In this document: positions 20,470 to 22,245 of the stretch, piece by piece
Layout: each line of letters starts with the position of its first letter
How positions within the stretch are numbered: position 1 is the stretch's first letter
NCBI RefSeq assembly: GCF_011745625.1
Contig: NW_027191487.1
Coordinates: 124,001-188,000 of the forward strand
Source: Cladosporium halotolerans
Taxonomy: Eukaryota
DNA: 64,000 nucleotides
Direction: 5' to 3'
Notes under the pieces: model-generated
Database searches by the model: none
Seen by the model: the letters and a program-made list of their open reading frames with translations, nothing else
Told to the model about the DNA's origin: nothing
Position numbers and translations under genes: made by a program

Positions 20470-22245
20470 CTAAGAAGCCGTGTCCATGCTTTCGACTGCC
20501 TTCCGCGCAGCTTCCTTCATTTCATTCATTTCCTCGTCACCAGCCTGCGCTGCTTTCAACTTGTCCCTCCAAGCCTCCAGCCGCTTTCCCGTTTCGTCAT
20601 CCCTCCCAGCAAGACCTTGGTAGAACTTGATCATTCGAGTGGTATCCTTTCCTGAACTCACGAACAGGACATCCTGCTTGGAGTCTTCGTACACAGCGGC
20701 GCATAAAAGAATCCAAAGCGTGTTCTGAAGCACATCTGATCCGCGCATGGCCGGACGTTTGCGGTTCATGCTCTCCAGCTTCTGACGCAGCGTTTGAAGC
20801 TTCGCCTCTTTGAGTTGCTCCGCAGAAGGGGCGTCGAGCTTCTGTTTGCGGCAGAATTTGACCACCGAGGAGTGAATGTCTGATAAGTTCTGTGCGGAAG
20901 AAACGGCCACGATGAATTTCTCCATGTCTTTCGTGCGAGATTTGTCTCGCTGCAGCTGGTTTGTGGTACGTAGGTGCTGGACCGCAGCGGGCAGGATGTC
21001 AGTCCGTAAGATTTCTGTTGTGTAGGTATCGAGGCGTGCCTTGAGGGAGTCGTCCGTTACCGATTCCAGCGATGCGGCGTAGAGGTTGATCGGCGCAAGG
21101 ACCCGTAATTGTGTTGCTTCTACAAAATCGAAGCGGTCGGTGGCGGACAATGTGGAGAAGGTGGTGTGGACAGCAGAGGTGATGGTGATTCGGTGGTGGC
21201 TGTTGAGAATATGTGTCGCAAGAGGCTTGGTTGCAGCCAGCCTCGATAAAATCTGCGCGTCCGAAGGTGGTTCGTCTGTATTCTGGTTCCAGAGAAGGGT
21301 CGTCTGCTTCACTGCAGCATCCGTCAGATCCTGCAGTGCTTGGTCGAACGCAGAGCGTGTCGCAACCACTACGGATTCGTCGTCGAGGTCGAGCACACGA
21401 AGCTTGTTGGCCATGTCTGACCGGTTGATCCGAGCATTTACGCCTGACTTGATACTTTGGTCACCCGAGCCAGCCAAGTGGGTGAAGCCATTGCCTTCTG
21501 CGTCATCGAGTGCCTCGTCTATTCGCTTCTGGTGGGCTTCCTCAAGTTTCTGCTGATGTGCTGAGAGGAATTCTCCAGGTGTGAAGATGACCTTGCCGTT
21601 GACGAGTTCCACATCACCATCGAGACCTTCCGAGCGCGCCACGCTTCTGGCAGCCCAGTCTAGCAAATCTGTCGGAACGTTGGATATCAGAGAGGACAGG
21701 TCGCATTTTTCTGGCCGCGCATCCTCGATCGCATCTTGGACCGCAAGCTTGGTCGAACCCAGATTGTCCTGGCGAAAGAAGTATCGTTTGCCAGGTCTGG
21801 GCGAATGGCACTGGATGTCTTCTAGTTCTGCCTCACGATCCAGCGCCGACTGCAAAGAATCTTTGTGAATATCGTGTTGCGCGCTCCAATTTAATGTGTC
21901 GATGAATCCTTGGCGTGTGGCGTCGACCAGTGAGTCCAGTATCTTCCTCAACTCGATGTTTGGAATCAACATTTTGCCGTCTCGACTATATGTCAAAGGG
22001 CCATGGTAGGGCGCAAGCAACCAGTCGGTGTCCCGAATCTCCAATATTGACGCAAGGTCGTTGATCGGAATGCGCTCTTGATTGGTTTCCAGCAATTCCT
22101 CGAAGCGAGCAAGCACTTTCTGGGAATTATACAGTTTCTCGCCGGATGCGCTTCGAACCAAAGAAGCTTGCCCTTTGGTGGGTTCAGGTGGTGGGAATGC
22201 CGCGACTATGGCCGCTATATCGGGCGACGCGAAGATGGGTGCCAT
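20470..22245 (-). CDS. Divergent E3 UFM1-protein ligase 1 (UFL1)-like protein
   Basis: Single-exon 591-aa ORF from ATG 22245. Tandem winged-helix-like segments and a C-terminal block align by eye with the recalled UFL1 sequence (see findings). Confidence 0.65.
   Translation of the reverse strand: [591 protein letters not shown]

Follow-up and report, generated by a model that had tools for sequence, protein, structure and literature searches.

An intronless UFL1-like gene in Cladosporium halotolerans

The stretch of DNA analyzed here, hereafter the window, comprises 64,000 nucleotides of Cladosporium halotolerans (positions 124,001 to 188,000 of contig NW_027191487.1, NCBI RefSeq assembly GCF_011745625.1), and its minus strand carries at 20470..22245 a gene for a divergent homologue of UFL1, the E3 ligase of the modifier UFM1. 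The coding sequence, counted with its stop codon, is an unbroken ATG-to-stop open reading frame (ORF) of 591 amino acids without introns, backed by the ORF list, the translation, the orthologues and the ratio of nonsynonymous to synonymous substitution rates (dN/dS). An earlier note on this DNA had described an intronless, UFL1-like gene whose product lacks the N-terminal helix by which human UFL1 binds the E2 enzyme UFC1. All fungal segments quoted there are present in the translation, and the absence of introns is borne out by both the uninterrupted ORF and a transcript-like contig (run X2, record 8) that covers the whole gene unspliced, together with both untranslated-region-like flanks (20356..22419, minus strand of the window), over 2064 nt with no gaps and 49 letters differing from the window. 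That the sequencing runs are RNA is only a guess, and their contigs fix neither the true transcript ends nor the strand; run X2 nevertheless behaves as RNA, because the neighboring gene for ribosomal protein S14 appears in it only in spliced form.

The start codon is well supported as real, with no 5′ exon ahead of it. An in-frame TGA 13 codons 5′ of the ATG (22285-22287, minus strand, read from the sequence; the stop-to-stop ORF ends at 22284) shuts the frame and makes an unspliced N-terminal extension impossible. On the upstream side lies a mitochondrial-type ribosomal protein S14 gene (22551..23065, plus strand), identified by its PF00253 match and by reading of its ATG at 22551; its introns, 22656-22741 and 22916-22968, are removed in run X2 at the GT..AG joints 22655/22742 and 22915/22969. 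The two genes stand head to head and share a divergent promoter region, with 305 bp between their ATGs, and the pair is kept in nine of nine metagenome loci that have an upstream flank. The start itself is shared family-wide, nearly all of 94 aligned family members beginning at one conserved motif; the few longer N-termini in this alignment show no kinship to each other. In five metagenome orthologues (L003-L007) the frame stays open for 77-99 codons 5′ of the conserved start, and the extra residues are likewise mutually dissimilar. The earlier note had allowed that a 5′ exon might supply the missing helix. No such exon is seen in the unspliced contig, there is little room for one before the divergent neighbor, and nucleotide similarity between the metagenome loci and the window ends on the upstream side at 22245-22277; a longer N-terminus or a 5′ exon was accordingly rejected, as the extra residues of over-long relatives are unrelated and nucleotide similarity stops at the ATG. 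Database models of 658-699 amino acids (e.g., P0015, P0017, P0024 and P0027) probably begin too far upstream.

The gene belongs to a Dothideomycete family

Among named relatives, the closest come from Cladosporium fusiforme (81% identity) and C. inversicolor (77%), both annotated as hypothetical proteins; one further, unnamed protein is 99% identical, and orthologues at 76-81% identity come from Cladosporium species and metagenome contigs. A phmmer search against 1.84 billion representative sequences gave 168 matching clusters at E≤1e-3. A first metagenome scan was empty and a second gave 10 loci. Three profiles were built from the relatives: A1 (14 sequences, Cladosporium-type), A2 (the 94-member family) and A3 (20 sequences, Pleosporales-type). 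An alignment-driven search of a 5.8-billion protein collection returned 40 family members and no canonical UFL1. The distant members are ~640-680 residues long, and the named ones among them belong to the Pleosporales genera Paraphoma, Setomelanomma, Ophiobolus and Curvularia. Within the Dothideomycetes, at least four orders are stated for the named members, those checked being Cladosporiales, Mycosphaerellales and Pleosporales. The Joint Genome Institute (JGI) name "glutamyl/glutaminyl-tRNA synthetase" is attached to 10 of 39 close database matches of the window protein; no aminoacyl-tRNA-synthetase domain is present in the window protein or in any relative scanned against Pfam, and the name looks like an annotation error.

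The Pleosporales UFL1-like proteins (P0137, P0188, P0189, P0134 and P0191) belong to the same family as the Cladosporium protein from end to end, sharing with it the N-terminal motif and a C-terminal GK..P/TxR..K motif. They differ in length (~640-660 residues), carry insertions in the fourth and fifth winged-helix (WH) units, and share only 17-20% identity with the Cladosporium protein. These Pleosporales proteins already carry precomputed PF09743/PF25041 labels, and the UniRef name of P0188 starts "E3 UFM1-protein liga", whereas the Cladosporium-type branch is unlabelled.

The window protein is a true but divergent UFL1 homologue

Taken alone, the window protein has no Pfam match at E≤10, which speaks against kinship with UFL1, and a search of Protein Data Bank (PDB) sequences gave no UFL1, only two chance matches (E 0.2 and 1.4). 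Profile A1 likewise had no PDB match. UFL1 was reached only by the wider profiles A2 and A3, once the family was broadly sampled: with A2, the human UFL1 constructs 8b9x_A (E 4e-5) and 8c0d_A (E 8e-5) lead 10 matches, and with A3 the same constructs lead at E 0.036 and 0.099. A further point on the negative side is that the 10 matches of A2 include only truncated constructs and none of the full-length UFL1 chains of ribosome complexes, which are missing from the A3 PDB shortlist as well.

The Pfam scan covered 93 family members, 36 at E≤1 and 57 at E≤0.01, and was judged by the gathering thresholds of PF09743 (E3_UFM1_ligase, 23.2 bits) and PF25041 (UFL1_C, 24 bits). By the count given, six relatives pass PF25041, the ids listed being seven (P0137, P0161, P0166, P0180, P0188, P0189 and P0191), and two of them also pass PF09743, namely P0137 (PF09743 24.7 bits, PF25041 30.6 bits) and P0191 (29.9 and 27.2 bits). 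The matches in Pleosporales members are collinear, with PF09743 N-terminal and PF25041 C-terminal. Five close relatives (P0050, P0060, P0074, P0086 and P0105) reach only 17-21 bits with PF09743, below threshold, over the WH region, and most Cladosporium-type members have no match in the same scan; the Cladosporium-type branch as a whole escapes current Pfam models. Two alignments tie the window protein (P0001) to the relatives that pass. Its residues 365-579 align with residues 451-656 of P0137 at E 1e-12, and the 30.6-bit PF25041 match of P0137 occupies residues 569-637. The hhalign comparison of A1 with A3 gives a probability of 100 and E 7.6e-53 over 573 columns (2-589 versus 1-652), collinear through the C-terminal domain. 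A match to the UFL1 Pfam families, which the earlier note had named as a check, is therefore absent for the protein itself but present in P0137 and P0191, to which it is linked by these two alignments.

Structure comparison gives the same answer. The AlphaFold2 model, computed on the 94-sequence alignment, has a mean predicted local distance difference test score (pLDDT) of 94.4 and a predicted template modeling score (pTM) of 0.67. In a Foldseek search of the PDB, which gave at least 500 matches, UFL1 chains occupy the first six places, from 8qfc_B (E 6.2e-14) to 8b9x_B (E 7.9e-5), the first unrelated protein being SelB (E 8.6e-4). VIA-align places model residues 1/3..582/583 on UFL1 27/29..785/786 with Z scores of 14.3-15.1, against 7.2 for the best non-UFL1 row, and full-length structural alignment was obtained with UFL1 in 8ohd, 8qfc and 9gy4. 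In an ESM Atlas feature search, UFL1 clusters score 0.92 and 0.90. Collectively, these results establish that the window protein is a true but divergent UFL1 homologue, whose likeness takes in the UFL1-specific C-terminal domain and extends beyond a generic WH array. The collinearity with human UFL1 that had been seen by eye is far beyond chance, and two of the four human segments quoted with it, one of them beginning with GQLIDENYL, occur letter for letter in the UFL1 chains of 8c0d/8b9x. The reading as a generic WH array like that of SelB, RPC62 or ESCRT-II was considered and rejected, as the UFL1-specific C-terminal domain is part of the match, whose score is well above those of such proteins.

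Domain architecture follows that of human UFL1

The protein opens with an N-terminal motif (residues 1-20; 22186..22245, all segments being on the minus strand) that includes a predicted helix at residues 7-16 and is delimited by conservation among the 94 members, the AlphaFold2 model and dN/dS. Residues 21-40 (22126..22185) complete a Pro-rich linker (17-28) and form a β-hairpin (strands 29-32 and 38-40), as judged from DSSP of the model, VIA-align and profile A3; in the model, helix 7-16 and hairpin 29-40 together form a partial winged helix (pWH). Five WH-like units follow in residues 41-351 (21193..22125; ~41-95, 96-158, 159-225, 226-296 and 297-351), assigned from the model and the UFL1 alignments. 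Residues 352-427 (20965..21192) are modeled as two long helices (352-395 and 399-427) that lead from the WH array to the C-terminal domain, with pLDDT of at least 85 throughout; no segment of the model falls below 50. The helical C-terminal domain (residues 428-591; 20473..20964), supported by the P0137 alignment, hhalign and the VIA-align match to UFL1 785, has seven helices in the model (residues 435-589). Its core, ~495-565 (20551-20763), is the counterpart of Pfam UFL1_C, as placed by PF25041 in P0137 and by conservation.

Human UFL1 is described as alpha1, hinge, pWH, WH1-5, a linker with a loop inserting into the peptidyl transferase center (PTC), and a C-terminal domain (Makhlouf et al. 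2024, PMC10937380). The human structures (8ohd, 8qfc, 9gy4, 8oj8, 8c0d and 8b9x) show the same order of partial WH, five WH units, connecting helices and C-terminal domain as the fungal protein, and the hairpin and WH1 sequences of the two can be aligned, yet overall identity is only 12-13%. As the earlier note had said, the fungal protein is shorter, its 591 residues aligning as far as human residue 785. A DDRGK1 part fused in cis was rejected: one partial WH plus five WH units is the count of UFL1 alone.

Placing the repeats in register calls for some care. The hairpin-to-hairpin register of the earlier note is backed by VIA-align on 8c0d_A, which puts 128 of the first 140 model residues (1..140) onto UFL1 26..162, by A3, in which the fungal hairpin is aligned with that of UFL1, and by the Pfam coordinates of relatives. 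As a point to the contrary, the register is shifted by one WH repeat in the A2 PDB alignment, and perhaps in VIA-align with 8b9x_B. Such shifts are a known weakness of repeat arrays, and the unshifted register was followed because the full-length alignments are anchored at both ends.

Two differences from human UFL1 stand out, one at the N-terminus and one ahead of the C-terminal domain. The first hairpin is preceded by two helices in human UFL1 and by a single one in the fungal family. Human UFL1 also has a long linker bearing the PTC-inserting loop (residues 436-448; PMC10937380), whereas the fungal model has no long disordered linker, the loops from residue 297 up to the C-terminal domain all being short. 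Judging from this missing linker, the PTC-inserting loop appears to have no evident counterpart in the fungal protein.

The retained N-terminal helix is most probably that of the partial winged helix

An almost invariant motif, M-x(0-3)-F-x3-D-[IV]-x2-[LI]-x3-F-P-P, marks the start of the family's proteins and is present in nearly all of the 94 members. In the model, a single helix (residues 7-16) precedes the first hairpin, no conserved helix lies upstream of the start motif in any of the 94 members, and structural alignments begin at UFL1 26 (8c0d_A) and 29 (8ohd_A). Because VIA-align puts helix 7-16 at the position of the pWH helix, alpha1 would be left without a counterpart. The retained helix is thus most probably the pWH helix, and the UFC1-binding alpha1 appears to have been lost.

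The motif can also be read the other way. Human alpha1 residues that bind UFC1 include I8, F15 and Q19, and changing either I8 or F15 abolishes UFC1 binding (PMC10937380). Two features of the fungal motif weigh against loss of alpha1: the spacing of seven between I10 and F17 (I-x6-F), with an acidic residue before I10, equals that of I8 and F15, and the motif sits at the extreme N-terminus, as alpha1 does in human UFL1. On this alternative, the protein would be an ordinary, fast-evolving UFL1 with a UFM1-type cascade retained, its motif being alpha1 and its pWH helix lost or replaced by the Pro-rich linker. The alternative gains from the motif being the most conserved segment of the protein, from a statement that certain fungi retain pathway components (Picchianti et al., PMC10183829), and from the fact that the absence of the cascade in this organism is taken from the literature. 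Strong conservation of the motif is, however, equally explained by the pWH assignment, because the pWH helix serves as a hydrophobic "glue" to UFBP1 in the human complex (PMC10937380). The superposition of the first 140 model residues on 8c0d_A needs helix 7-16 at the pWH helix and not at alpha1; loss of the pWH helix would leave the composite winged helix without its third helix, which is unlikely; the model lacks the PTC-loop linker; and UFM1 is reported lost in fungi (PMC10183829). On balance we regard an ordinary UFL1 as unlikely. Loss of the UFC1-binding helix, as the earlier note had proposed, is supported by the count of one helix instead of two and by alignments that begin at UFL1 26-29, but is tempered by the alpha1-like spacing of the helix that remains.

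The gene is under strong purifying selection, with conservation greatest at both ends of the protein

The dN/dS sample comprised nine orthologous coding sequences, those of the window and of eight metagenome loci, giving 36 pairs. Values of 0.032-0.074 were obtained in 23 of the 36, the others being saturated at synonymous sites (12 pairs) or identical (one pair); the 12 pairs with dS<1 gave 0.033-0.074. The UFL1-like gene is under strong purifying selection, as the check across relatives suggested by the earlier note now shows. Constraint is distributed unevenly. Residues 1-40 have dN/dS of 0-0.04, and residues 1-20 carry 2.24 bits per position across the 94 members, the highest value, with a family mean of 1.49. 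Residues 495-565 reach 2.06 bits, and Lys/Arg is conserved at positions 443, 463, 467, 482, 533, 537, 540, 560 and 564. WH2-5 are the most variable units (1.0-1.2 bits per position). In the human complex, the two ends of UFL1 are the parts that bind UFBP1 and the tRNA groove or 28S rRNA (PMC10937380).

The selection data also bear on whether the ORF is a decaying remnant or a mis-annotated frame without function. The protein has no direct Pfam match and databases label it hypothetical, both of which would fit such a case; against this stand dN/dS of 0.03-0.07, an ORF intact in every orthologue fetched, 168 representative clusters, a model pLDDT of 94 and a transcript-like contig that spans the gene. 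We consider a remnant very improbable, and a pseudogene was rejected on the dN/dS values.

UFL1 scaffolds possibly outside the UFM1 pathway

Fungi are reported to have lost UFM1 and C53 (Picchianti 2023, PMC10183829). According to the same paper, UFL1 and DDRGK1 are often kept where UFM1 has been lost, a UFM1-independent role has been proposed for them, and their origin is placed in Asgard archaea (PMC10183829). The fungal protein, which, unlike human UFL1, belongs to a class of the fungi, a kingdom reported UFM1-less, would be in the same general situation, with the scaffold kept and the modifier reported lost; the accessible parts of that paper describe neither the N-terminal truncation nor the lack of a linker and name no ascomycete, and six ascomycete names are absent from two of its supplements (PMC10183829). 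Our literature searches on UFL1 in Ascomycota and fungal genera found nothing on fungal UFL1, and those on UFM1- or UFMylation-independent roles found nothing on fungi among the titles listed. Within the 64-kb window, the UFM1, UFC1, UBA5 and DDRGK1 families match none of 167 ORFs of at least 110 amino acids, a result that says almost nothing about the genome.

Asgard archaeal UFL1/DDRGK1-like scaffolds are likewise UFL1-type WH arrays and may act without ligase add-ons. Unlike them, the fungal protein carries the eukaryotic C-terminal domain, and its first WH is partial, not complete; it is therefore a reduced eukaryotic UFL1 and not an archaeal-type single-chain scaffold.

A candidate 60S clamp acting without UFM1

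In the human complex, the C-terminal domain of UFL1 lies between 28S helices 38a and 69, filling the tRNA groove; the WH units touch ribosomal proteins; and UFBP1/DDRGK1 contributes its C-terminal half-domain to complete the pWH (PMC10937380). By analogy, we propose that the window gene encodes a functional, divergent UFL1 orthologue that serves as a 60S-binding clamp, paired through its pWH with a partner and recruiting no UFM1-charged E2 enzyme, a reading to which we assign a probability of about 0.55. The fungal protein would bind free 60S subunits, as human UFL1 does. Its Lys/Arg-rich C-terminal domain would sit in the tRNA-binding groove, its WH array would run along ribosomal proteins, and its highly conserved pWH would dock on a partner that provides the missing half of the winged helix. 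Such a partner is predicted because one helix and a hairpin make the first module only a partial WH, and it may be a DDRGK1/UFBP1-like protein or a functional replacement. With no E2 recruited, the protein would work as a UFM1-independent clamp or as an anti-association or recycling factor. Two considerations lower the probability of this proposal: ribosome binding and the partner are carried over from the human complex, and the presumed absence of UFM1, UBA5, UFC1, DDRGK1 and CDK5RAP3 in this organism comes from the literature.

A UFL1-derived scaffold might instead have been recruited to a non-ribosomal job, binding some other complex of nucleic acid or protein, in which case the likeness to UFL1 would reflect ancestry only. 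WH arrays are generic platforms, and SelB, RPC62, ESCRT-II and TFIIIC parts reach Z scores of 5-7 on single units; the middle WH units are the least conserved; and the elements specific to the ligase cycle, the alpha1 helix and the PTC loop, are counted as absent on the basis of the model. Such a change of role is less easily reconciled with a C-terminal domain that is the second most conserved region and keeps its Lys/Arg residues, the very domain that occupies the tRNA groove in human UFL1, or with an architecture collinear with UFL1 as a whole to residue 785, and we think it improbable. A 60S clamp remains the reading we prefer for the window gene. Extended to the family, it would mean that UFM1-less Dothideomycetes keep a streamlined UFL1, without the E2-docking helix and the PTC loop, that clamps 60S subunits with a partner; we advance this wider claim tentatively, as possible but not probable.

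Other features of the window

Downstream of the UFL1-like gene, the window shows no nucleotide similarity to the related loci. The segment 15467-19500 is G+C-rich (0.60-0.64), with an AT skew as low as -0.19, and contains an 860-codon open frame on the minus strand (15467-18046) that matches no Pfam family. A GPI2/PIG-C gene (PF06432; ORFs worth two exons) lies at 288-1904 on the plus strand, ~18.5 kb from the UFL1-like gene; in the Rachicladosporium record P0192, one 1096-residue model joins the UFL1-like protein to GPI2, probably through adjacent genes having been merged by the gene caller. A HET-domain gene (2043-3320, minus strand) and a large RNA-dependent RNA polymerase gene (37394-41803, plus strand; PF05183, 660 bits) are also present, along with the housekeeping genes SPT16, Coq4, SCO1, ribosomal protein S4, GH64, GH11 and GH31.

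Implications

UFL1 has been studied almost only as a UFM1 ligase. Phylogenomics has already suggested a UFM1-independent job for UFL1-DDRGK1, with no experimental system named in the parts of that work at hand (PMC10183829). Retention of UFL1/DDRGK1 without UFM1 is thus known in general terms (PMC10183829), as are the automatic UFL1 labels on Pleosporales members. Our literature searches turned up no description of a UFL1 family under strong constraint across the Dothideomycetes, of the Cladosporium-type branch of that family, which Pfam does not detect, or of the apparent reductions, namely the lack of a PTC-loop linker and an N-terminus shorter by one helix. The family could provide an experimental system of this kind, being strongly constrained, keeping both ends of the clamp and missing at least one ligase-specific element. 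If the proposal is correct, it would represent a natural separation-of-function form, found in genetically tractable organisms, that exposes an ancestral, modifier-independent activity of the UFL1 scaffold, which could be 60S anti-association or translocon release. The fungal UFL1-like protein may thereby show what the ribosome-binding scaffold does without UFM1 tagging.

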